The position numbers and the translations under genes are program-made. The notes beneath the pieces were generated by a model that searched no databases, was not told the DNA's origin, and saw nothing but the letters and a program-made list of their open reading frames with translations. Shown here one piece after another: positions 746 to 21,448 of a stretch of 24,000 nucleotides of DNA. The first letter of the stretch is position 1, and every line of letters begins with the position of its first letter. Location: contig NZ_CP032416.1 in NCBI RefSeq assembly GCF_003600355.1, positions 306,183 through 330,182 on the forward strand, written 5' to 3'. This stretch comes from Clostridium fermenticellae (GTDB lineage: Bacteria; Bacillota; Clostridia; Clostridiales; Clostridiaceae).

Positions 746-1018
746 TTTTATTTATAGGGTTTGTAATTACAAGCTTAAATTATACTTCAGTTGACATTTC
801 CAAAATTCGTCACCTAAAAAATTTCTAGTAAGTCTAAGTTTGTATTTATAAAAATCTAAGCAGATTTTATAAACTCGCAGACTCAAACATATAAAATCTA
901 CTAAGATTTTCAAAAATGCTTCACTAAAACTTACTAAAAAATTTTTTAATGTGCCTACATTTTGGAAATGTCAGCTTACGTATAACTTAATCCTGGAATT
1001 ACAAACCCCATAAATAAA
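746..1018 (+). repeat. Long-hairpin intergenic repeat, subfamily 1, full-length copy A (about 273 bp imperfect palindrome)
   Basis: Left end TTTATTTATAGGGTTTGTAATTACAAGCTTAA pairs with right end TTAATCCTGGAATTACAAACCCCATAAATAAA. The inner box TGACATTTCCAAAAT pairs with ATTTTGGAAATGTCA. The central apex AAACTCGCAGACTCAAAC (871..888) sits exactly at the midpoint. The element is collinear with 12946..13209, with roughly nine of ten positions identical by eye. No ORF. Confidence 0.9.
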
Positions 1019-9724: not shown

Positions 9725-10186
9725 ATGCTAAAATTAACGGGAATAGATATATTATTGCGAACAATTCCAGAAGCTTTTTTATTTGTCCTTTCTGCTTATT
9801 TATTTAGTTTCAAAAAGATAAATAAAAAGGACTTTAGTATATCAGTTTTATTATTAAGTATATGTACATATTTGGTAAGGGAACTCCCAATACATTATGG
9901 GGTTCACATAATAATAAATATAGCTGTATTTGGTTTAATAATGGTATTTATAGATAAGATTGACCTTGCTAAAGCAATGACGTATTCTTTTGGCGTAATG
10001 ATGATTCTTTCAATATGTGAGTGGCTAAACTTGTTTGTACTTGATATCTTAGCAAAAAATAGTGTGCAGTATATATTAAAAGATCCAATAATTAAAAATT
10101 TATGTTTTTTACCATCCTTAGTTTTGTTCTTGATAATTGTACTTTTAATTAGATTTTTAATAAAAGAAAGAGTTGACTGTGTATGA
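9725..10186 (+). CDS. Small polytopic membrane protein (4-5 predicted TM helices), first gene of the agr operon
   Basis: 153 aa, almost entirely hydrophobic segments. GAAGGGG RBS. Its TGA overlaps the agrB ATG (ATGA at 10183..10186), which implies translational coupling. I recognise no family motif. Confidence 0.7.
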   Translation: MLKLTGIDILLRTIPEAFLFVLSAYLFSFKKINKKDFSISVLLLSICTYLVRELPIHYGVHIIINIAVFGLIMVFIDKIDLAKAMTYSFGVMMILSICEWLNLFVLDILAKNSVQYILKDPIIKNLCFLPSLVLFLIIVLLIRFLIKERVDCV

Positions 10187-10839
10187 ATATAAATTTCATA
10201 CAAAAAATTTCAAGTTTGATTGGTCTTAAGATTTCTTATAGTTTAAGTTTAGATGATGATGTGAAAGATATAATAATATATGGTGCATATAATTTATTTC
10301 AAATGGTATGGAGTTTGCTATGTGTACTGATATTAGGCATTGTATTTAATGTTGCTGCTCAAGCCATTTTAGTATGTGTTTCGATAGCTATTCTAAGGAA
10401 ATATTCTGGAGGTGTACATGCACCATCATCTAATAGTTGTGCTGTGATCGGTGCGGTGATTTCGGTTGGAATTGCATTTATTAGTCAATTAAAATTATAC
10501 TTATCAATTCAAAATATATTTTTAATTGAGGTATTTGTGTTTTTAATATCTTATTATTTTGTTTATAGACTTGTTCCGGTAGACAGCGAAGCTAAAAGGA
10601 TAAATAATATTAATACAAGAAAGAAATTTAAAAAATACTCAATATTAGTGTTAAATCTATTTGCAATCGTAATTATGATATTGGATGTATGTTATATAAA
10701 ATATAATAAAGAATACTTTTTTATATTAATTAGGTGTATATCTTTGGGAATGTTATGGCAAGTATTTACATTAACTTCTGTAGCACATAAGTTGATGTCC
10801 TGTATAACTAATATTTTAAATTTACAAAGGAGTGATTAA
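10183..10839 (+). CDS. agrB: Accessory gene regulator B (AgrD-processing membrane endopeptidase)
   Basis: 218-aa polytopic membrane protein. It has the AgrB signature RKYSGGVHAPSSNSC, with His79 and Cys86 spaced 7 residues apart as for the catalytic His77/Cys84 of S. aureus AgrB. An AgrD-like ORF follows directly. Confidence 0.88.
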   Translation: MNINFIQKISSLIGLKISYSLSLDDDVKDIIIYGAYNLFQMVWSLLCVLILGIVFNVAAQAILVCVSIAILRKYSGGVHAPSSNSCAVIGAVISVGIAFISQLKLYLSIQNIFLIEVFVFLISYYFVYRLVPVDSEAKRINNINTRKKFKKYSILVLNLFAIVIMILDVCYIKYNKEYFFILIRCISLGMLWQVFTLTSVAHKLMSCITNILNLQRSD

Positions 10840-10840
10840 A

Positions 10841-10981
10841 TTGAAAAAAAATTTGAGAAAGAAGAGTGCAATTATATGTGCAAAAGTTTTAAAACATTTT
10901 GCGGTATCAACATCTGCGTCTGCTTGTAATTTGAGTTTATATCAACCTAAAGAACCAGAATGTTTGAGAAAAGACAAATAG
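10841..10981 (+). CDS. agrD: Autoinducing-peptide precursor AgrD (46 aa)
   Basis: Absent from the ORF track. TTG start 8 nt after AGGAG (10828..10832) and 1 nt after the agrB stop. Translation: MKKNLRKKSAIICAKVLKHFAVSTSASACNLSLYQPKEPECLRKDK. It has a basic/amphipathic N-terminal leader, a central Cys (SACNLSL) and a charged C-terminal tail with a Q-P-x-E-P...LR motif, as in clostridial AgrDs. Confidence 0.85.
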   Translation: MKKNLRKKSAIICAKVLKHFAVSTSASACNLSLYQPKEPECLRKDK

Positions 10982-10988
10982 ACTTATG

Positions 10989-11029
10989 ACATAAATATAA
11001 GGATCGTTTACCGGTCCTTATATTTATGT
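10989..11029 (+). terminator. Strong hairpin after agrD (terminator/attenuator, no canonical U-tail)
   Basis: 18-bp stem ACATAAATATAAGGATCG / CGGTCCTTATATTTATGT (one G-U pair) with loop TTTAC. The downstream sequence AGCTGATTTAC is not a U-run. Confidence 0.55.
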
Positions 11030-11068
11030 AGCTGATTTACATAATTAAATTTTTATGAAAAAAGGTAG

Positions 11069-12943
11069 ATGGATGTGAGTTTTATGGATTTTACCCGGGG
11101 GAGCAGACAGAAAAATGTATGGGATATGATATTTATAGTTAAAATCTTATCACTGCTTTTTTGTGGGATTATAGTTTGCAGTCAGTTCTTTATGAAAAAT
11201 AAATATATAAACTCGACGGATCTAAAAAATTATAATATGGGAACCTTTGGATTTATGGTATGTGTGACATTGGCAATATTTTGCTTATGGATATTAATTT
11301 TAAAAAACATGGATAAATGGAAAGGAAAAAAAGTGTTCGTTACTATAGAAGATATATGTTTTATGATTATATTCTCAGCTATAGTATTAAAAACACAACC
11401 TTACTCTGATCAGTACAATTTTATATTTTTATTTATCATAATAATATCGACTATACAATCCGGTAAGAAGTATGGAATGACATTAGCATTTATGTCATCT
11501 GTCATAATATTTCTTGTAGACATACTTTCTAAGAAGAGTCCGCTTGATGCAAATACTTATTTTGAAAGTGATATGATTTTGTCATCTATATTTATGGTAA
11601 TATCATGGATAATCGGCCATTATGTGGAGATTGAAAATAGAAATATAAGAGAAAAAAATATTCAGCTCTCCAGATTAAACAGTAAATTGAATAAACAAAA
11701 GGAACACCGCAGAAATATAGAGAAAATACTTTTAAAGAATGAGAAATGTTATAACTTATTGATAGATAACTCAAATGAGGTAATATTTATTCATGATTTT
11801 AACAGAATAATATTTGGAAATGAAAGTGCTGCAAAAATTGTTGGACTTTCTACGCCGGATGATCTGGGTGGAAGATCTATATTCGAATTTATACCTAAGG
11901 ATGAAAGAGAAGCTATAAGAAAAAAGTTCTCGAGGTTATACAGAGAGCACGAGATAACACTTGTGTTTAACCAAAAAATAGTTAATAAGGATTCTACTGT
12001 AAGTTTAGTTGAAAATTCATCTACTTATATAATGTATGATGGAAGACCGGCAATACTTACTATAATTCATGATATAACACCCGAAGAAGAAGTCAAAAAG
12101 CTTAAACACGATGTTGAAGAAAATGTTAAACTTTTAAATGAAAGCAGGGAATTCAATAAACTTATTACTCAATTCTTTACTAATATATCGCATGAACTTA
12201 AGACACCTTTAAATGTGATATTTTCAGCAATACAGATGCTTTCTATATATAATTCGGAAAGTAGAAATGATAAGATGGAAAAATATATAACGGTTGTGAA
12301 ACACAATTGTTATAGACTGATGAAACTAATAAATAATTTACTTGATGTTACTAAACTTGATTCCGGATTTTTAAAATTAGGACTTAAAAATTATGATATA
12401 GTGAGTGTTATTGAGGAAATATCATTATCTGTTGGTCCTTATTTAAAAGCAAAGAATATGTCGATAACCTTTGACACCAATGTTGAGGAAAAGATAATGG
12501 CTTTTGATTTAGAAAAACTCCAAAGAATAATTTTAAATATAATATCAAATGCAGTTAAGTTTACAAACAAAGGCGGAAGCATATTTATAAATTTAACTGA
12601 CAAGAAAGATGTAATGTGCATAAGCATAAGGGATACGGGGATAGGAATACCAAAAGATAAATTAGATGTCATATTTGAAAGATTTGGACAAGTTGATAAG
12701 ACCTTAAATAGAAATTGTGAGGGAAGCGGAATGGGACTTTATCTTGTAAAGTCTTTTGTAAATATGCATGGCGGTAAAATACATGTTAAAAGTAAAGTTG
12801 GAATAGGAACAGAGTTCATTATAGAACTTCCGGTAGTTATATCAGATGAAAGTGACGTGTCCGGCAGAACACTGTGCGAAGACAACATTGAAAAGGTAAG
12901 TATAGAGTTTTCTGATATATACTATGATACAGCTGTAAATTAA
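11069..12943 (+). CDS. Orphan sensor histidine kinase: 6-TM N-terminal domain, PAS, HisKA, HATPase_c
   Basis: Six hydrophobic helices in about aa 20-190. PAS-like region about aa 225-335 (NLLIDNSNEVIFIHDF...ILTIIHDITPEEE). H-box FFTNISHELKTPLN (His codon 12191..12193). N/G boxes NIISNAVKFT, DTGIGIP and GSGMGL. The start is ambiguous (ATG 11069, GTG 11075 or ATG 11084). No response regulator lies adjacent. Confidence 0.88.
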   Translation: MDVSFMDFTRGSRQKNVWDMIFIVKILSLLFCGIIVCSQFFMKNKYINSTDLKNYNMGTFGFMVCVTLAIFCLWILILKNMDKWKGKKVFVTIEDICFMIIFSAIVLKTQPYSDQYNFIFLFIIIISTIQSGKKYGMTLAFMSSVIIFLVDILSKKSPLDANTYFESDMILSSIFMVISWIIGHYVEIENRNIREKNIQLSRLNSKLNKQKEHRRNIEKILLKNEKCYNLLIDNSNEVIFIHDFNRIIFGNESAAKIVGLSTPDDLGGRSIFEFIPKDEREAIRKKFSRLYREHEITLVFNQKIVNKDSTVSLVENSSTYIMYDGRPAILTIIHDITPEEEVKKLKHDVEENVKLLNESREFNKLITQFFTNISHELKTPLNVIFSAIQMLSIYNSESRNDKMEKYITVVKHNCYRLMKLINNLLDVTKLDSGFLKLGLKNYDIVSVIEEISLSVGPYLKAKNMSITFDTNVEEKIMAFDLEKLQRIILNIISNAVKFTNKGGSIFINLTDKKDVMCISIRDTGIGIPKDKLDVIFERFGQVDKTLNRNCEGSGMGLYLVKSFVNMHGGKIHVKSKVGIGTEFIIELPVVISDESDVSGRTLCEDNIEKVSIEFSDIYYDTAVN

Positions 12944-12945
12944 AT

Positions 12946-13209
12946 ATATATAGGGTTTGTAATTTCAAGCTTAAGTTATACTCCAGCTGACATTTCCAAA
13001 ATTCATCACGTAAAAAATTTCTAGTAAGTCTAAGTTCGTATTTATAAAAATCTAAGCAGATTTTATAAACTCGCAGGCTCAAACATATAAAATCTACTAA
13101 GATTTTCAAAAATACTTCACTAAGACTTATCACAAAACTTTTTAATGTGCCTACATTTTGGAAGTGTCAGCTTATGCATAACTTAAGCTTGGAATTACAA
13201 ACCCTATAT
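12946..13209 (+). repeat. Long-hairpin intergenic repeat, subfamily 1, full-length copy B
   Basis: TATATAGGGTTTGTAATTTCAAGCTTAAG...CTTAAGCTTGGAATTACAAACCCTATAT. Apex AAACTCGCAGGCTCAAAC at 13067..13084, the exact midpoint. It has the same orientation and order as copy A and begins 3 nt after the kinase stop codon. Confidence 0.9.
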
Positions 13210-13222
13210 GCATTACTGGTAT

Positions 13223-13274
13223 GGGGCTTATAAATAAAAGCTTAAGTTGTACGTAAACTTAGACTTGTAAACCC
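13223..13274 (+). repeat. Miniature (termini-only) hairpin derivative of subfamily 1
   Basis: GGGGCTTATAAATAAAAGCTTAAGTTGTACGTAAACTTAGACTTGTAAACCC. The left half resembles the left terminus AGGGTTTGTAATTACAAGCTTAAATTATAC and the right half resembles ...CTTGGAATTACAAACCC. It folds on itself. Confidence 0.6.
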
Positions 13275-13495
13275 TAATATTTTTAGATAAAGGTTTATTT
13301 ATTCTTTTGTATAAACTAACTTTAAAGTTAATTCATAAACCCTGGCTTGAAGAAAAAAATAAATTGCCCGCTAGAACTTGACACAAACGAGAGAAACGCA
13401 GAGGTGGAAAAAATCTTAAAATTAATATATAATATGATAATATAGTGTATAATGTTGAGATATGTTAAACTAATATAATTATAGGAGGTTTTCAT

Positions 13496-14548
13496 ATGAT
13501 AAGGAAAAGGAAATGTTTGAGTTCTGCACTTGCAGCACTTGTTCTTTCTGCTGCATTTTCGCTTGGTACAACTGTACAAGCGGCAGATGTAACCAGGACT
13601 GATGGTGGTGCAGGTGGAAGAATAGGAACAGCGGATAGTGTTGCTCTAAGTGCATTTGGAACAGCTAAGAATGTAATACTTGTAAATGGATATGGATACG
13701 CTGATGCTGTAAGTGCAACACCTCTTGCAAAACAGTTAAATGCACCTATACTTTTGACGGCAGGAGGTACACTTGAATCAGAGGTAGCCTCAACAATAAA
13801 AAGTCTTGGTGCAACAAATGTATACATAGTTGGAGGAACGGGAGTTGTATCTGATGCAATTGAAAATACATTAAAATCATCATATACCGTACAGCGTATA
13901 GCAGGGGTTACAGATACCACAAGAATGGGAACAAACTCAGAGGTTGCTAAAAAAGTATTAAGTCTAAGCGGACAAAAAACAGCAGTACTTGTAAATGGAC
14001 AAGATGGATATGCAGATGCACTGTCAGTTGCATCACTTGCTGCGCAAAAGGGATACCCGGTTTTATTTTCAACATCACAGAATATAGCATCTGTAGTTAA
14101 AGATGTCGTAAATTCAAATTCACTTAGCATATTAGCTGTAGGTGGAAACGCAGTTTTACCTCAATCTGTTGTAGATAGTGTTTCAGGTAAAAAAATAACT
14201 CAAAATACTGCAGATAGATTTGCAACTAATCTTGCGGTCTTAGATTATTTTAAAAATAATGGTGGAATAGATTTCAGTAATGTTTACATAGCAGCAGGCG
14301 GAGCAGAAGAGGATCAATTTGCAGATGCATTAGTTGCTTCAGCCGCTGCAGCAAAGACAGGATCACCACTAGTACTTACAGGACTTGGAGCAAATACAGA
14401 TCAGATAGCAGCAGCACAGGATTATATAGCATCTAATGCCAGCGAGGATTCAAAGCTTATCGTTGTTGGAGGAACAGCTTCTGTATCTGATGCTATACTA
14501 GAACAACTTAAAAATTCTGACACACTTGAAGTTATAGGAATAGAATAA
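13496..14548 (+). CDS. Secreted cell-wall-binding protein made only of a signal peptide plus three CWB2 repeats
   Basis: Signal peptide MIRKRKCLSSALAALVLSAAFSLGTTVQA|AD. Three CWB2 (PF04122-type) modules, each with ...(D)R..T...V... plus V.LVNG.GYADA(L/V)S...LA......P(I/V)L(L/F). Strong RBS AGGAGG. No additional effector domain. Confidence 0.88.
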   Translation: MIRKRKCLSSALAALVLSAAFSLGTTVQAADVTRTDGGAGGRIGTADSVALSAFGTAKNVILVNGYGYADAVSATPLAKQLNAPILLTAGGTLESEVASTIKSLGATNVYIVGGTGVVSDAIENTLKSSYTVQRIAGVTDTTRMGTNSEVAKKVLSLSGQKTAVLVNGQDGYADALSVASLAAQKGYPVLFSTSQNIASVVKDVVNSNSLSILAVGGNAVLPQSVVDSVSGKKITQNTADRFATNLAVLDYFKNNGGIDFSNVYIAAGGAEEDQFADALVASAAAAKTGSPLVLTGLGANTDQIAAAQDYIASNASEDSKLIVVGGTASVSDAILEQLKNSDTLEVIGIE

Positions 14549-14552
14549 TATG

Positions 14553-14586
14553 AAATCAACGTATTTGTATGCGTTGATTTTTTATA
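14553..14586 (+). terminator. Rho-independent terminator of the CWB2-only gene
   Basis: AAATCAACG (14553..14561) pairs with CGTTGATTT (14572..14580), followed by a TTTTTTA tail. Confidence 0.85.
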
Positions 14587-14590
14587 TTAT

Positions 14591-14849
14591 GGGGTTTATA
14601 AGTTAAAAAGTTAGTTCATCCCCCGGGAGATACTGCCAAAATCTGGTACTATAAATGCTTTTAGTAATTCTAAAGCCCGGTATTTTGAAAATCTAATAAA
14701 GATTGATAAACTCGCTATGCTCAAACAGTATCAATCTTTATATATTTTTTAAAATACCAGGCTAAGAATTATAATAAAAGTATTTAATGTACCTATATTT
14801 TGGCAGTACCTCCCTCAGGTATAAATTAACCTTTAAAATTACGACTCCC
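14591..14849 (+). repeat. Long-hairpin intergenic repeat, subfamily 2, full-length copy C (about 259 bp)
   Basis: GGGAGATACTGCCAAAATCTGGTAC pairs with GTACCTATATTTTGGCAGTACCTCCC. GCTTTTAGTAATTCTAAAGCCCGGTATTTT pairs with AAAATACCAGGCTAAGAATTATAATAAAAGTA. Apex AAACTCGCTATGCTCAAAC at 14708..14726, the exact midpoint. It has the same architecture as copies A and B but a diverged sequence. Confidence 0.85.
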
Positions 14850-15170
14850 TATAACTATATAGGAGTTAAGCTTAGATCCGTAAACCTTATAATTATAAAT
14901 TATATTTTGTCATTTTTTTATATTTAAAGAGGATATTTAAAATAAATGTAGAATAATATAAAAGAATATTTTTATGTAAATTTTATTAAAATTAACTTTA
15001 TGGTTTTATATACATTAAAATCCTTAAATTACTAGTGACAAAGGTATGGAAAATCTAAAAAAACTGTTGTATAATTTATTTATAACTTAATATTGTTAAA
15101 TAATATAGTTTTTTCTCGCATAAATATATTTATGAATATTAAACATACTATAGAAGTAAATCCATATATA

Positions 15171-15494: not shown

Positions 15495-18400
15495 ATGAGT
15501 AAAAAAGGTACAAAGGCACTTGCTAGTGCTACACTTTTGTCCTTAGTTTTAACTACAGCTTTATCAGCTGGTCCAGTTAAAGCTGCAGCAACAGGACAAA
15601 CTACAAGAATCGCTGGTGCTGATAGATATGCAACAGCAGCAGCAGTTGCTACAAAAGACGGAAAGACTAATGACAATGTAGTTTTAGTATCAGGTGAAGG
15701 ATATGCAGATGCTGTAAGCGGATCTGTATTAGCAAAGACAATAGATGCACCAATACTATTAACTCAATCAAACACTCTTAGTGCAGATACTACAAAAGCT
15801 TTAAATACATTAAAACCAAAGAACATATATGTTATAGGTGGAACAGCTTCAGTATCCAAGTCAATAAGAGATCAACTAAAAGATGGCGGATATAACCTAG
15901 TAGAATTAGGTGGAGCAAACAGATATGAAACTAACGTAGCAGTTGCTAATGAATTAGTTAAAAATCATGGAATAAGTGCTGACAAAGTAATGGTTGTTGG
16001 CGGAGAAGGTTTCTCTGATGCTCTTTCAGTAGCACCAGTTGCAGCTGCAAAAGGACAAATCCTTTTACTTGGAAGCAATAATCAGAATGACATGAAATCA
16101 GTTATTGATTTCGTAAATACAAATAAATCAAATGCTACAGTAGTTGGAACAAGCAATATAATGAATGATTCAATACTAAAAGCTTTAGGTGTAAATCCAT
16201 CCACAAGAATAAACGGTGGAGCAGACAGATTTGCAACTAACTTAAATGTATTAAAAGCATTCAGCAGCGATTTAAAAGCTGACAGCATTTATGTTGCAAA
16301 TGCAACAGCAGATGATGGATATGCAGATGCATTAGTTGCTTCAGCATTAGCTGGAAAAACAGCATCACCATTAATATTGGTTGATACTGATGATTCATCA
16401 GCTACATCAAATGCTTTAAGTTACTACAACAGTGAAAAAACAGATTCTACAAGCACTTACGTTGTAGGTGGAGAAGGAGTTATTTCAAAAGATTTATATG
16501 TAAAATTTGGTGGAACTGATAACTCTACACCTGGTACAGGTGAATCTAGTGTTAAATCAATAGATTCAGTTGATTTGAATCAGATTAAAATTGTGTTTGG
16601 TACTGACGTTGATAGTGATTCAGCTGAAGCTATTGGAAATTATAAAGTAGATGGTACAACTTTAACTAATAAGGATGCAGTAGCACAGTTACAAGATGAT
16701 AATAGAACTGTTTTGATTACATTAAAACAACCCAAAGAACAAAATAAATCATATACAGTTTCAGTTAAGAGTGGAATTTTAACTGCAGATAAGACTGGTA
16801 ATATTGATTCTAAAGAACAGTCTATTACATTTGGTGATACAGCTGCTCCAACAGTGACTTCTGTTACTCCACGTGGAGGCAATAAATTAACTGTTAAGTT
16901 CTCAGAACCAATAAAAGTGCCTGTAAAGAGTCTTACTAAATTTGGTGATAATAATGATGATGTTATTGCTAAGGATGGTAAATATAATCCAGCAACTGAT
17001 TTTACATCGAAGTTTAAGATTAATGGACAGAACATTGCAAGTTTTGGACTTAGTTCAACAAATACGGTTACTAAGTATGCTGTCCCAACAACTACAGGGA
17101 CATCAGTTTGGGCAGATGAAGTAGATTTTTATTTTTCATCACAGCTTCCTTCAGGAAGTAATACATTGGAAATTAATGATGGAACTTCAGATGCTAATTC
17201 CAGCAATAATAGTGGTGTGTTAGTGGATTCTGCTGGCTATATATTCAAAGATTCGACTCAAAGTTTTACTATAGATTCAGTTACTAGTAAACCTACAGTT
17301 AAATCGGTTGATGCCGAGGCAGATGGAACAATCTGGGTAAGATTTGATAGACCTATGGATGATGTTACAGCAAGAAATAATACTAACTATGAAGTAAATA
17401 GTGAATCAATAAGTTCAGGTAATAATAAATATGGAAAAGGAACTATTAGTTTAAAGGAAGGAGATACTGCAGTTAAAATAACTGGATTAACCTCATTACC
17501 TTTTGGATCCAATTCAATATATATTAAGAACAATGTGAAAGATGCTTATGGGAATACAGTGGATGATGATACAAGAAAATCATTTGATGTTGAAAAAGAT
17601 GAAACTAAGCCAACAGTCAATAGCGTAACTATGGTTGATAGTGAGACTATTAGAATTGTATTTAGTAAGGATATAAATAAAGATTATGCTGAGAACCATA
17701 GTAACTACACTTTGAAGGATTCAGATGGTGTAGATATAACTGATCGTATAAGACTTATAAAACCAGCTAAAATGAGTGATGTAGATAGTGATACTCAGAC
17801 TGATATAAATAATAGTAGTGATAATGACAATGATAGTGTATGGGATATAAAGATGAAAAAGCATGATCCAAACAATCAAAATGATGATTGGAGATTAACA
17901 GGGTCTAAGTATACTTTAACTATCAAAAATTTAGTTGATACTACATTCAAACAAAATGTTATGGATGATAAAACAGTAACATTAAATGGTTCTGATGATG
18001 TATCACCTAGATTGACAGGAGCTTATAGAAAAACTAAAGATGCTGACAGCAATGATAATAGTTATAAGCATAAGGTTGTTTTAACTTTTTCAGAAGCAAT
18101 GGATAGCAGTACTTTAAACGATATAAGTAACTATCAATATAAAAATGGAGCTAATGATAGTAAAACTCTTCCTTCGGGAACAACTGCTACTCCAGGAAAT
18201 GATAATAAGAGTGTAACATTAGAATTCCCAACGAGTTATTATATATATGATGGCAAGGACACTACTACTACAGTAGACAGTAGTTCTACCCTTATTAAAG
18301 ATTTAGACAATGATGATTTAGTAAAAGGTATTCTTGCTTCTGGATTAAAAGATGTTGCTGGAAATTCTATAGATTCATTTAATAATAGTTTTGGTGTTAC

Positions 18401-19298
18401 TTATGACAATACTAGTAGTTCTTTTGCATATAAGAATAGTACTTATACTATGGAGAATTCAGGAGATGACTTGTTAGTAAAAGTTCAGTTTGCAAGTGCT
18501 TTGGATTCAAATAGTCTTATACCGGAAAACTTCAAAGTAGCAGGACAGAAACCTGATGCTGTATATATGGATGGATCCAATGTTGTATTAAGATTCAATA
18601 AAGGCACAGCTTCAGATAAGAAAGCTAAAGCATTATATAATTTACCAGATGAACAAGCGAATAAAGAAGATCCTCTTGACAGATGTGATGTTGTTAGACA
18701 TGCAGGTGCCAATGCTGTGCTTTCTGTAAATGGAAATGTTAAAGACATAACTGGTGCTAGTATTTCAAATGCAACTACTGGTGGAGCTATAAGTGTTGAT
18801 CCTAGTGATTCTAAGTGGTATACTGTTTCTAATAATATTGGACATGACAGTACAGCTAATAAGGATGTTCAAGTATATTCATATAATGCAGCTCCAAAAA
18901 CTACTTCTGATTATTGGTATGCAACAGCTGATCAGAATATTGCTTCAGGAACAAGCCAAGCTGCTATTGTATTAACTTTCGATACTCAACTTGATCAAGT
19001 TTATTCTAGTGTTTCACCTGATAACTTTAGGTTTAGTGCTTCAAATGGTGAATTAATACCTTCATCTATGAAGATTAAAGGAAATTCATTAGTATTCTTA
19101 TTTAATAATGATGATGTTAAGAAGGCTAATTCTATTAATGTATCTGTTAAGAATGATGATTCATTAAAATTAAAATCATTAAGAGATGCTAACGGTGGAA
19201 ATGCTACTTATGTTCCAACTGATAGTGATACAGGTACAAGAAATGTTAAAGTTATTTCATCTTCTTCAACATTTATAAATGACTTATTAAATAACTAA
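15495..19298 (+). CDS. Large CWB2-anchored surface (S-layer-type) protein, 1267 aa
   Basis: Signal peptide MSKKGTKALASATLLSLVLTTALSAGPVKA|AA. Three N-terminal CWB2 repeats (RIAGADRYATAAAVA...YADAVSGSVLAKTIDAPILL; GGANRYETNVAVA...FSDALSVAPVAAAKGQILLL; GGADRFATNLNVL...YADALVASALAGKTASPLILV). After these come at least 6 tandem beta-sandwich-like modules starting (A/K)PTV.SV and containing x-NY-x motifs (GNYKVDG, TNYEVNS, SNYTLKD, SNYQYKN). Strong RBS and a strong terminator. Confidence 0.9.
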   Translation: MSKKGTKALASATLLSLVLTTALSAGPVKAAATGQTTRIAGADRYATAAAVATKDGKTNDNVVLVSGEGYADAVSGSVLAKTIDAPILLTQSNTLSADTTKALNTLKPKNIYVIGGTASVSKSIRDQLKDGGYNLVELGGANRYETNVAVANELVKNHGISADKVMVVGGEGFSDALSVAPVAAAKGQILLLGSNNQNDMKSVIDFVNTNKSNATVVGTSNIMNDSILKALGVNPSTRINGGADRFATNLNVLKAFSSDLKADSIYVANATADDGYADALVASALAGKTASPLILVDTDDSSATSNALSYYNSEKTDSTSTYVVGGEGVISKDLYVKFGGTDNSTPGTGESSVKSIDSVDLNQIKIVFGTDVDSDSAEAIGNYKVDGTTLTNKDAVAQLQDDNRTVLITLKQPKEQNKSYTVSVKSGILTADKTGNIDSKEQSITFGDTAAPTVTSVTPRGGNKLTVKFSEPIKVPVKSLTKFGDNNDDVIAKDGKYNPATDFTSKFKINGQNIASFGLSSTNTVTKYAVPTTTGTSVWADEVDFYFSSQLPSGSNTLEINDGTSDANSSNNSGVLVDSAGYIFKDSTQSFTIDSVTSKPTVKSVDAEADGTIWVRFDRPMDDVTARNNTNYEVNSESISSGNNKYGKGTISLKEGDTAVKITGLTSLPFGSNSIYIKNNVKDAYGNTVDDDTRKSFDVEKDETKPTVNSVTMVDSETIRIVFSKDINKDYAENHSNYTLKDSDGVDITDRIRLIKPAKMSDVDSDTQTDINNSSDNDNDSVWDIKMKKHDPNNQNDDWRLTGSKYTLTIKNLVDTTFKQNVMDDKTVTLNGSDDVSPRLTGAYRKTKDADSNDNSYKHKVVLTFSEAMDSSTLNDISNYQYKNGANDSKTLPSGTTATPGNDNKSVTLEFPTSYYIYDGKDTTTTVDSSSTLIKDLDNDDLVKGILASGLKDVAGNSIDSFNNSFGVTYDNTSSSFAYKNSTYTMENSGDDLLVKVQFASALDSNSLIPENFKVAGQKPDAVYMDGSNVVLRFNKGTASDKKAKALYNLPDEQANKEDPLDRCDVVRHAGANAVLSVNGNVKDITGASISNATTGGAISVDPSDSKWYTVSNNIGHDSTANKDVQVYSYNAAPKTTSDYWYATADQNIASGTSQAAIVLTFDTQLDQVYSSVSPDNFRFSASNGELIPSSMKIKGNSLVFLFNNDDVKKANSINVSVKNDDSLKLKSLRDANGGNATYVPTDSDTGTRNVKVISSSSTFINDLLNN

Positions 19299-19454: not shown

Positions 19455-19490
19455 ATCCAGTCTACTTATAAAAGCAAACTGGGTTTTTAT
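19455..19490 (-). terminator. Possible weak terminator of alsS
   Basis: The minus strand reads AAAAACCCAGTTTGCTTTTATAAGTAGACTGGATTTTTT. The stem CCAGT/ACTGG has partial extensions and is followed by a U-run. The stem is weak. Confidence 0.35.
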
Positions 19491-19520
19491 TATGGAGTTT
19501 ACAAATTTAAGCTTTCATTT
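19491..19520. repeat. Solo terminus fragment of the subfamily 1 repeat abutting the alsS stop codon
   Basis: TATGGAGTTTACAAATTTAAGCTTTCATTT compares with the copy D terminus TATAGGATTTACAAGTTTAAGCTTAAACTT. No partner arm is evident. Confidence 0.4.
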
Positions 19521-21195
19521 ATAAATCTTTTATTCTGTATTTTAATTTTAAGTTTTCAGAGTAATCAACACGGCAGTCGATAACAGCAGGAATTTTTTGC
19601 TTAAATGCATCTTCAAGAGTAGGAATAAGTTCATCACTCTTGTGAATTGTGTAGCCTTTAAGTCCCATACTTTCTGCTAAAGCCTCAAAATCTGGATTGT
19701 TGAAGTTTATGAATTCTGAGTTACCAAACTTTTCTTCCTGTTTCCATTTTATAAGTCCATAGTTGCTGTCATTAAATATAAGTGTTACAAAAGGTGTTCC
19801 TATTCTTAGGGCTGTTTCAAGTTCCTGTGAGTTCATCATGAAACCGCCGTCTCCTGTTACTGCAAGTACCTTTCTGTTTGGATGGACAAGTTTTGCGGCA
19901 ACTGCACCCGGGATGGAAATACCCATTGAAGCAAAACCATTTGATATTATGCAGGTATTTGGCTTGTAACAGTGATAATTTCTTGCAACCCATATTTTGT
20001 GTGCGCCAACATCCGATATTACGACATCATCTTCTCCCATGAATTTTCTTACATCATAGAGTATTTTTTGAGGCTTCATGGGGAAAGATTCATCATTTGC
20101 GAATAATTCGTAATCTTTTTTCATATTTTCTCTAAGTTCAAAGGCATAATGAGGCTCACTCTGTCTGTCAGAACGCCTTAATATTTCGTATATTGAATCA
20201 GAAATATTTCCAACGACCTCAACCATAGGCTGATAATTTTTATTTATTTCTGCTTTTTCAACTCCTACATGAATTACCTTTATCTCTCCATTAGGGTTCC
20301 ACTTTCTAGGAGAGTACTCTATAAGATCATAGCCGACAGCTATAACGAGATCCGTCTTTTCAAATATTTTATTAATATAGTCTTTTTGGAAAAGCCCTAT
20401 ACTCCACAGTGAATATTTGCTTGTGAAGGGAACTATTCCTTTACCCATAAAGGTGTTTGCAACAGGTATTTTAAGTCTGTTTGACATTTCATTTATGGAA
20501 CTGCTTGCATTTGCCCTTATTGCTGCGTTGCCAACCAGTATTATTGGATTTTTTGCTCTAGATATTGCAACGGAAGCTCTTTCTATACTGCTGTAATTTG
20601 CAAAACTCTTTTCAAGTGTTGGTTTTTCAAGAGGTTTGCCGACTACCGGCATAGCTGCGATATTCTCAGGGAGATCTATATGAACTGCGCCTGGTTTTTC
20701 ACTTACAGCCTCCTGAAAGGCTTTTCTTACTATTTCCGGAGTTGTATCCGGCCTTACAATTTGTTTATTCCATTTTGTTACAGGTCTAAACATTGAGACA
20801 AGGTCTAAATATTGGTGGGAGATTATATGCATTCTATCTGTACCAACCTGACCTGTTATAGCAATAAGTGGTGCACCATCCAAATTTGCATCTGCGACAC
20901 CTGTCATTAAATTTGTTGCTCCAGGTCCCAGAGTTGAAAGACATACACCTGGTCTACCCGTAAGTCTTCCATATACATCTGCCATAAATGCGGCACCCTG
21001 TTCATGCCTTGTTGTGATAAATTTTATGGAAGAGTTATGGAGGGCGTGTATCACATCAAGATTTTCCTCTCCAGGTATTCCAAAAATATATTGAACTCCC
21101 TCGAATTCAAGACATTTAACGAGGAGCTCTGCTGTACTCATAGTATTTTTTTCATCCTTATTTACTTTGGATTTTTGGTTCGATTCCGTTGACAT
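19519..21195 (-). CDS. alsS: Acetolactate synthase, catabolic (AlsS) type, TPP-dependent
   Basis: AELLVKCLEFEGVQYIFGIPGEENL at the N-terminus and the TPP motif GDGGFMMNSQELETALRIGTPFVTLIFNDSNYG are present. About 558 aa with no adjacent small regulatory subunit or ilv genes. A GGAGG lies 8 nt before the ATG at 21195, so the track start at 21210 itself contains the RBS. Confidence 0.82.
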   Translation of the reverse strand: MSTESNQKSKVNKDEKNTMSTAELLVKCLEFEGVQYIFGIPGEENLDVIHALHNSSIKFITTRHEQGAAFMADVYGRLTGRPGVCLSTLGPGATNLMTGVADANLDGAPLIAITGQVGTDRMHIISHQYLDLVSMFRPVTKWNKQIVRPDTTPEIVRKAFQEAVSEKPGAVHIDLPENIAAMPVVGKPLEKPTLEKSFANYSSIERASVAISRAKNPIILVGNAAIRANASSSINEMSNRLKIPVANTFMGKGIVPFTSKYSLWSIGLFQKDYINKIFEKTDLVIAVGYDLIEYSPRKWNPNGEIKVIHVGVEKAEINKNYQPMVEVVGNISDSIYEILRRSDRQSEPHYAFELRENMKKDYELFANDESFPMKPQKILYDVRKFMGEDDVVISDVGAHKIWVARNYHCYKPNTCIISNGFASMGISIPGAVAAKLVHPNRKVLAVTGDGGFMMNSQELETALRIGTPFVTLIFNDSNYGLIKWKQEEKFGNSEFINFNNPDFEALAESMGLKGYTIHKSDELIPTLEDAFKQKIPAVIDCRVDYSENLKLKYRIKDL

Positions 21196-21341: not shown

Positions 21342-21448
21342 TATAGGATTTACAAGTTTAAGCTTAAACTTACTAGAAATTTTTTACGTGACGTATTTTA
21401 GAAATCCCTGCCGGAGCATAAGTTACGCTTTCATTTGCAACCCTATAT
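21342..21448 (-). repeat. Long-hairpin repeat, subfamily 1, internally deleted copy D (inverted orientation); probable ldh terminator hairpin
   Basis: The minus strand reads ATATAGGGTTGCAAATGAAAGCGTAACTTATGCTCCGGCAGGGATTTCTAAAATACGTCACGTAAAAAATTTCTAGTAAGTTTAAGCTTAAACTTGTAAATCCTATA. This is collinear with the left arm of copy B as far as TTCTAGTAAGT, then joins directly to a right terminus. It begins 1-2 nt after the ldh stop. Confidence 0.7.

Follow-up and report, generated by a model that had tools for sequence, protein, structure and literature searches.

Background

Dispersed palindromic repeats of bacterial genomes are normally specific for a lineage and defined by their ends. Here we describe a repeat in Clostridium fermenticellae that belongs, in contrast, with elements of the Firmicutes, Bacteroidota, Proteobacteria, Elusimicrobia and others that have an invariant 20-nt tip in common. 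The repeat (copy A) is found at positions 753-1012 of the window, i.e. the whole stretch of 24,000 nucleotides that was analysed (contig NZ_CP032416.1, positions 306,183 to 330,182). We lean towards the view that copy A is one insertion of a ~265-bp, non-coding and non-autonomous foldback element, similar to a miniature inverted-repeat transposable element (MITE), of which the tip is recognised in single-stranded hairpin form.

The described systems that come closest to this element are the following: i) Correia elements (CREE/NEMIS), which are 100-155 bp long and restricted to Neisseria, have a 26-bp terminal repeat TATAG(C/T)GGATTAACAAAAATCAGGAC and a putative TA duplication, and for which no transposase is known; ii) ERIC/IRU, YPAL, RUP and bcr1 elements, which are thought to act as hairpins in transcripts; iii) REPINs (~100 nt) and the REPs that flank RAYT genes; iv) the attC sites of integrons (57-141 bp), which have a conserved base RYYYAAC/GTTRRRY, where the R'' and R' boxes pair, and a variable tip; v) Tn3-derived TIMEs, with a 38-bp end GGGG...ACGYTAAG and a 5-bp duplication; and vi) single-strand origins (ssoA, G4-type ssi, N4 promoters). 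The REP unit itself is 20-40 nt long and has a GTAG or CGTC tag (PMC3733652).

The element behaves like Correia, ERIC or REPIN elements but lacks the features by which each of these families is defined. Like Correia elements it is non-coding, multi-copy and intergenic, forms hairpins from inverted repeats, has ends that begin with TATAG and comes in full-length and internally deleted classes; a Clostridium relative (L079) even reads TATAGTGG, as the Correia end does. Unlike in Correia elements, however, the termini vary between lineages and the tip is conserved, the window ends (GGGTTTGTAATT) share with the 26-bp repeat TATAG alone, and the Neisseria members of the tip family end in GTTACGCAC..GTGCGTAAC. 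ERIC/IRU, YPAL, RUP and bcr1 are also imperfect palindromes (100-300 bp) at gene ends, with a structure that is kept by compensatory changes, but each of them is restricted to a lineage and defined by its overall sequence, whereas the tip family spans many phyla via a 20-nt loop. The element core was without match in 5,426 E. coli genomes, which does not fit the 127-bp enterobacterial consensus of ERIC/IRU.

REPs and REPINs are, likewise, hairpin repeats without a gene of their own that probably act as a single strand, with short palindromic units (here the GGGTTTGTAA..TTACAAACCC stumps) and composite forms. The initial annotation of the window, made from the sequence alone, had listed a REP/BIME-like structural repeat among its alternatives. 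The element lacks the defining features of REPs: it measures 260 bp against 20-40 nt, no conserved nuclease or transposase gene, of the RAYT type or other, was found near 240 copies, and the 3-bp duplications of the Flectobacillus members (see below) do not fit transposition by an HUH enzyme. The resemblance to attC sites lies in the imperfect palindrome that is read as a folded single strand, in the unpaired bases that set polarity and in the conservation of structure over sequence; but attC sites are conserved at the base and the present element at the tip, its CTTAACG-like motifs are unpaired, internal and on the same strand in both arms, its length is 260 bp, and neither an integrase nor a cassette array was found in the window. 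Single-strand origins are similar in being long, orientation-dependent hairpins with a conserved terminal loop and a GCGNAGC-type mini-hairpin, but they occur once per plasmid or phage whereas the element is chromosomal and multi-copy; the ssoA signatures RSB (TTATGCCGAGAAAATTT) and CS-6 (TAGCGT) were not seen in the element sequences by eye, no pattern search having been run. As for the Tn3-derived TIMEs, one arm end of copy A is loosely similar by eye (GGGGTTTG...TACGTAAG, 35 nt), but the other ends are not and there is no 5-bp duplication. The small RNA family FopS of Bacteroides is restricted to the Bacteroidaceae and is a different element. Resemblances that came to mind were further those to a hammerhead core, a K-turn, boxA, dif and part of the 23S rRNA, as well as that of the extra Bacteroidota hairpin (see below) to CTTGATA, the nick site of pC194.

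Database searches did not connect the element to a known family either. Rfam 15 yielded no match in the window at the gathering threshold and one unrelated T-box in 15 family loci that included other phyla, and in E-value mode nothing but weak look-alikes of microRNA hairpins; Pfam gave no match for the translations of open reading frames (ORFs) that span the repeat. The searchable literature contained no description of the element under its apex, its extra hairpin (see below) or a cross-phylum MITE, which does not prove absence from the literature. The copy in the window is an ordinary insertion of its family, and it is the family itself that is unusual and apparently uncatalogued.

Results and discussion

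Full-length copies in the window

Copy A had been annotated as a palindrome of about 270 bp that folds back on itself over its whole length. This description holds: the repeat is an imperfect palindrome from end to end that forms a single, near full-length hairpin, all of the pairings that had been quoted are present in the sequence, and so is the unpaired apex at the midpoint (871-888). The near-identical twin reported at a distance of ~12 kb was recovered as a direct repeat (749-1012 / 12945-13208, 264 nt, 92% identity) and is referred to as copy B. A third full copy with the same architecture, copy C, had been overlooked. In the list below, each copy is assigned to the strand on which its apex reads ATAAACTCGC.

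753-1012, plus strand: copy A, full-length foldback repeat of 260 bp (covariance model 44.6 bits, E 9e-7)
869-889, plus strand: apex of copy A, ATAAACTCGCAGACTCAAACA
12949-13208, plus strand: copy B, full-length, 92% identical to copy A (covariance model 48.7 bits)
13065-13085, plus strand: apex of copy B, ATAAACTCGCAGGCTCAAACA
14588-14853, plus strand: copy C, diverged full-length copy with the consensus apex (covariance model 63 bits, E 7e-11)
14706-14727, plus strand: apex of copy C, ATAAACTCGCTATGCTCAAACA

With a length of 260-266 bp, the copies are of the size of a generic MITE (below ~600 bp), non-coding and multi-copy. As annotated, copy A is without a real ORF and without a transposase, the only overlap being that of a mechanical ORF (12837-13133, minus strand) with copy B, and it is located between a minus-strand gene (173-682) and the asparaginase gene (1141-2139). 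Copy B starts a few bases 3' of the stop codon of a histidine kinase gene (11069-12943), and copy C adjoins the T-run of an intrinsic terminator (14552-14581; 13-bp stem and T-run) that is itself 3' of the first CW_binding_2 gene. The termini, quoted before as TATAGGG...CCC(C/T)ATA, were found as TATAGGGTTTGTAA ... TTACAAACCC(C/T)ATA, and the element ends in the window read TATAGGGTTTGTAATT..AATTACAAACCC(C/T)ATA; terminal inverted repeats like those of a MITE are thus present, with the entire element being an inverted repeat.

When the three copies are aligned, about 60% of the columns are identical throughout. The plan that A and C have in common consists of related ends and a non-palindromic apex, with the block CTGCCAAAAT..ATTTTGGCAG of C corresponding to the block GACATTTCCAAAAT..ATTTTGGAAATGTC of A. 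The apex of A falls short of the family consensus, ATAAACTCGC-TNYG-CTCAAACA, by one base; in both A and B it is shortened to CTCGC-AGA/AGG-CTC, without the GC-RNA-GC core that is present in C.

A cross-phylum family defined by its apex

A search for the apex pattern (ATAAACTCGC-N3-4-CTCAAACA; one genome per species in the genome scan) recovered at least 240 stretches, at least 120 of them in genome contigs and at least 120 in metagenome contigs, in which the pattern is enclosed by stems that are complementary and mutually unrelated. About 10 genome matches were without a stem and, as judged by eye, chance-like; the remainder are located at a hairpin tip. The genome matches listed included several Clostridium species, Tepidibacter, Lachnospiraceae and Selenomonas; many Bacteroidota, among which Flectobacillus, Flavobacterium, Saprospiraceae and Bacteroidales; and further Neisseria, Pasteurellaceae, Neptuniibacter, Elusimicrobia, Melainabacteria and one metagenome-assembled genome (MAG) of Nomurabacteria. 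The pattern was also present in 9 plasmid records, mostly of very large replicons, which added Ralstonia, Variovorax, Parabacteroides and Butyrivibrio, and it was without match in 2.9 million viral contigs. The element is therefore not peculiar to clostridia; it belongs to a family that extends over many phyla and has the apex as its defining feature. The initial annotation had advised to count copies and to test whether all are intergenic; the element proved to be multi-copy and strictly intergenic.

The family tip consists of a variable stem of ~9 bp that closes the 20-nt loop AACTCGC-T-N-Y-G-CTCAAACAG. A covariance model built from the alignment added 13 copies, within the same loci, that do not match the exact pattern and still read AACTCGC-T-N-CG-CTCAAACAG, and two kinds of rare variants (CTCGT..CACTC and CTCCC..CGGTC) keep the 2-bp inner stem of the loop via double changes. 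The stems have a sequence that is specific for the lineage and complementary within each copy. Genomes often contain many copies, and contig ends are frequent at these. In Clostridium, Lachnospiraceae and Neisseria the arms are 120-150 nt long, which results in elements of ~270-320 bp, and in other lineages the elements are shorter or composite. The termini differ as follows:

Clostridium: TATAGGG..CCCTATA
Neisseria: GTTACGCAC..GTGCGTAAC
Lachnospiraceae: TGACAG..CTGTCA
Flectobacillus: GAAGCTGTTTAAAC..GTTTAAACAGCTTC

The clustering of the copies and their derivatives (at least seven pieces within 24 kb, located between genes or upstream of them) might suggest a feature that is local only, such as a segmental duplication or an operator-like pair of palindromes that regulates the asparaginase and surface-protein loci. 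This is very improbable: a repeat comparison within the window revealed nothing that the flanks of A, B and C have in common beyond the element, relatives carry the same genes without it, and the same apex and architecture recur at hundreds of unrelated loci in many phyla.

Two further observations concern the wider family. Several loci of Bacteroidota and Ralstonia (L009, L053, L110, L127 and others) contain a second conserved hairpin, TTACTTTTnTCTTGnnAAAAGTAAC followed by CAAAAGnTCAAG, beside the long one; its loop CTTGAT is complementary to a downstream ATCAAG, so that a pseudoknot or an alternative pairing is possible. On plasmid 9 of Parabacteroides distasonis (L128, 2410-2960) two inverted GC-rich family copies flank a gene for a 32-aa 'smalltalk protein', which is located next to genes for an amidase and for an HU-family protein; in two Bacteroidales MAGs, too, HU genes are found at ~270 bp from copies.

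Signs of mobility

The Flectobacillus-type members end in inverted repeats of 14 bp. All 9 of the 9 complete copies are bordered by an exact direct repeat of 3 bp (AAT, TAT, ATT, AAT, GAT, ATC, ATT, ATT and ATA), and none by one of 4 bp. Because of these inverted ends and exact target duplications, the Flectobacillus members are true, transposon-derived MITEs. The metagenome contigs L177 and L215 showed ends TGAGTCTACTCCG..CGGAGTGGACTCA with apparent direct-repeat flanks of 9 bp and 6 bp, which hints at sub-families that use different transposases.

For the copies in the window, the signs of mobility come from comparison with relatives. Clostridium sp. JN-1, the nearest complete genome (asparaginase 74% identical), shares the gene order over 21 kb; this syntenic DNA contained no match to the covariance model, and the terminus motif was present at chance level. 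With respect to JN-1 (L251), positions 1-1140 of the window contain two extra minus-strand genes (167 and 212 aa) and copy A, between the gene for a DUF8436 oxidoreductase and the asparagine operon. In a related metagenome species (kinase 74% identical), the spacer between the kinase and CW_binding_2 genes measures 142 bp versus 552 bp here, where it contains copy B and a stump. In the related species, the site that matches copy C (L253, 4085-4120) contains a small terminus-like palindrome, TGCAATTTGTAATTTGCTAAATTACATTGCA, possibly a stump or else a target that the element prefers. Contigs assembled from short reads of C. fermenticellae itself break off 35-50 nt into A and B, which is what one would expect of a repeat. 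The non-autonomous mobile repeat proposed by the initial annotation is partly supported, namely by the multi-copy and intergenic occurrence, the absence from the syntenic DNA of the two nearest relatives, the contig breaks and the Flectobacillus duplications, but no autonomous partner was found.

Fold, strand polarity and covariation

The predicted RNA fold of the plus strand amounts to -87 kcal/mol for copy A (z -13.0) and -106 kcal/mol for copy B (z -16.4), with none of 200 shuffles as good, and the z-scores for the hairpin folds of the copies range from -13 to -17. The minus strand of copy A folds far better (-115.4 vs -87 kcal/mol with RNA parameters; -61.6 vs -56.6 kcal/mol with DNA parameters). 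Throughout the family, the complement of the apex strand was the better folder in 94 of 96 elements (mean gap 10.8 kcal/mol), and it still was in 81 of the 96 (mean 7.2 kcal/mol) when the apex was replaced by GAAA. Various motifs are, moreover, found in the same sense and at unpaired positions on both arms: CTTNACG (CTT(A/C/T)ACG) was counted 39 times on the apex strand versus 3 times on the complement and TCTAAG 30 times versus once; for CTTCAC the counts were 28 and 3. The palindrome is not symmetric, with same-sense motifs on both arms and one strand that is consistently the better folder, and therefore selection on structure sees one strand, which is the minus strand in the window.

An alignment of 56 diverse members showed that the 9-bp stem beside the loop is paired in 83% of the cells, compared to 57% in shuffles, and contains 129 cells with double changes, compared to 42 in shuffles; none of 500 shuffles reached the observed value and slid controls were clearly lower. 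Within the window, compensatory double changes between A/B and C were found in 14 of 94 predicted pairs. The hairpin of the family is under selection.

On the better-folding strand the loop reads CTG-TTT-GA-GC-RNA-GC-GA-G (core TGAGC-RNA-GCGAG). In our own reading, two GC pairs may form a stem here that is capped by a GNA triloop, with tandem G.A pairs and a T.G pair on its flanks. The tip would then resemble the GCGNAGC 'mini-hairpin DNA' motif, which, as such or in close variants, has been reported for the start site of the primase on phage G4, for ssiA of RSF1010 and for the hairpin promoter of phage N4 (PMC13037366).

The strong covariation around an invariant loop could also point to a structured RNA: a cis-acting hairpin in an untranslated region (for 3' end protection, termination or cleavage by RNase III) or a small RNA, with a loop that binds a widely conserved partner and with dispersal being secondary. 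The gap between the strands is large with RNA parameters (28 kcal/mol for A; mean 10.8 over 96 elements) and only 5 for A with DNA parameters, the better-folding strand has more G-U pairs (588 vs 433), and the copies are found at gene ends, more in convergent than in divergent settings. The ratio of wobble pairs to A-C mismatches is, however, ~1.3 (435 vs 326), and structured RNAs usually show a far higher one. The orientation of the apex strand was determined for loci with a callable context, which comprised 13 convergent, 19 co-oriented, 20 anti-oriented and 7 divergent settings (20/18/19/7 in the genome set alone), so that an overall orientation bias is absent. The Clostridium-type loci tend towards co-orientation of the apex strand with both neighbours (11 vs 2; our own reading of the genome set and the window, a small sample). 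Copies B and C conform to this, as does the inverted half element at 21342; loci of other types show the opposite tendency or none. At the window copies, a scan for promoters and terminators gave nothing above shuffles and neither a conserved promoter nor a U-tract terminator; the better-folding strand is antisense to the genes that flank B and C, C is downstream of an intrinsic terminator, and Rfam gave no family, whether by gathering or by E-value threshold. The RNase III target or structured non-coding RNA that the initial annotation had put forward therefore agrees with the strand gap and the covariation but not with the weak wobble excess and the absent orientation bias, and we regard a structured RNA as unlikely.

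The same-sense motifs on both arms, the one strand that is consistently the better folder, the GCGNAGC-type mini-hairpin at the tip (PMC13037366 for known sites) and the inner loop stem that is preserved through double changes in the rare variants may alternatively reflect a function as single-stranded DNA. The element would then be mobilised like a REPIN, by a single-copy enzyme of the HUH type acting on hairpins exposed during replication, or its tip would be a priming or hairpin-promoter signal; with a single-copy enzyme no linked gene is expected. Inverted ends with short duplications are typical of DDE-type transposition and not of HUH transposition, and the Flectobacillus ends and 3-bp duplications accordingly point to a cut-and-paste enzyme of the DDE type. 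No HUH, RAYT or Rep gene was found among the neighbours in 240 loci, the apex pattern is absent from the viral contigs and restricted to 9 records among plasmids, the ssoA signatures were not apparent by eye, and A and B are without the GC-RNA-GC core. A role as single-stranded DNA of this kind is, in our judgement, quite unlikely.

Proposed mode of spread

We favour, as stated, a MITE-like foldback element with a tip that is recognised in hairpin form. The element would be copied or moved by an enzyme supplied in trans, and this enzyme, or a host factor that it needs, would read the conserved tip once one strand folds into a hairpin. The arms would need only to stay complementary, which would let the arms and termini drift and co-vary. 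New copies would persist at sites where the damage is slight, in the AT-rich spacers that follow or border genes at their ends and beside terminators, and old copies would decay by internal deletion, leaving terminus-only stumps such as those beside A, B and C. The foldback-MITE reading would account for the intergenic multi-copy spread, the insertion differences between species, the decay to stumps, the covariation, the free termini and the strand polarity. The mobilisation in trans in Clostridium, the recognition of the tip and the nature (DNA or RNA) of the active strand are what we infer from these patterns.

Several points weigh against this proposal. Ordinary MITEs have conserved ends and a free interior, and here the reverse is the case, with termini that vary and an invariant tip; we know of no transposition mechanism that explains an invariant tip with changing ends. 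Within the scanned set, the conservation of the 18 pattern positions of the apex follows from the way in which the set was selected. A and B may be inactive because their apex is shortened. Among the neighbours of 240 copies there was neither a transposase nor an autonomous element that shares the ends. An automated search for target duplications in all lineages performed no better than shifted controls; the window copies are compatible with TA|TAGGG..CCCTA|TA, in line with the TA or TATA duplication initially considered possible, but the palindromic ends and AT-rich flanks make a duplication indistinguishable from an extension of the palindrome. The comparison of empty and filled sites, as initially advised, gave a difference in spacer and synteny between species only, with empty sites too diverged for the exact boundaries to be placed, and look-ups of exact proteins led to no same-species empty site: they returned either no record or short contigs terminating within the repeat.

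It is possible, although somewhat unlikely, that the family is a kind of element not recognised before, defined by the tip and not by the ends, i.e. that it consists of arbitrary arms and a universal structured loop of 20 nt (on the better-folding strand a GNA-triloop mini-hairpin with tandem G.A pairs) that is read by machinery common to most bacterial phyla. Such a class could represent a mobilisation system directed by structure. It could also be a single-strand signal, for priming, for termination or for the binding of a protein, that is portable and was repeatedly captured by transposon families. Repeated capture of the tip module would agree with ends, and possibly with duplication lengths, that vary from one lineage to another. 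The readings as a MITE-like element, as a structured RNA and as single-stranded DNA are not exclusive, as different transposon families may have picked up the same hairpin module.

The combination of an invariant tip with free arms and termini implies a conserved partner, an enzyme or a host factor that reads the folded single strand. Once found, this partner could reveal a new mobilisation route for small elements or a portable nucleic-acid signal of very broad host range. In practice, the repeat breaks short-read assemblies, mechanical ORFs across it could be mistaken for genes, and it is not in Rfam.

Truncated derivatives

The terminus motif TATRGGRYTTRYAA has 12 matches in the window, compared to 0.74 expected. 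In total, the window contains three full copies and at least three truncated ones. The derivatives are:

13220-13279, plus strand: short derivative, 11 bp after copy B, with the two termini and ~25 nt per arm kept and the apex absent
14856-14891, plus strand: short derivative (TATATAGGAG...GTAAACCTTATA), 2 bp after copy C
21342-21448, minus strand: half element of ~107 bp, inverted, between two minus-strand genes, with terminus motifs at both ends
720-746, no strand assigned: possible terminus-type mini-palindrome (GGTTAC..GTAAACC), just left of copy A (weak assignment)
19490-19527, plus strand: possible terminus-type fragment (TTATGGAGTTTACAA...ATAAATC; weak assignment)

For the half element, the complementarity to the left arms of A and B amounts to 76-77%. 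The stretch that follows the derivative beside copy B (13280-13400) is an additional spacer of ~130 bp that is missing in the related species and contains further terminus-like fragments, GGTTTAT..ATAAACC and CATAAACCCTGG.

Genomic context

The genes near the copies in the window are ordinary chromosomal genes, encoding: a flavodoxin-like protein, asparaginase, an AsnC regulator, an aminotransferase, a 2-oxoacid:ferredoxin oxidoreductase and GlmM. The window further contains an agr-like locus, a PAS histidine kinase, two CW_binding_2 proteins, acetolactate synthase and lactate dehydrogenase, and no transposase, integrase or reverse transcriptase was found among its genes. Clustering of the neighbouring ORFs of the 240 loci revealed no shared gene family and housekeeping neighbours only, and clustering of the small ORFs none that are shared except those that run across the repeat itself. 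As is evident from the distances to the ORFs on either side, the spacer is often filled by the element; the copies are usually intergenic and at gene ends.

Two of the loci in the window have characteristics of their own. The agr-like quorum-sensing locus (9725-12943) comprises a membrane protein, AgrB (10183-10839) and the PAS histidine kinase, and in relatives AgrB and the kinase are separated by an ORF of 46 aa, at the expected position of the gene for an AgrD propeptide. The CW_binding_2 surface proteins (13496-14548 and 15495-19298; 350 and 1267 aa) contain internal repeated modules, and the first of their genes is flanked by copies B and C.

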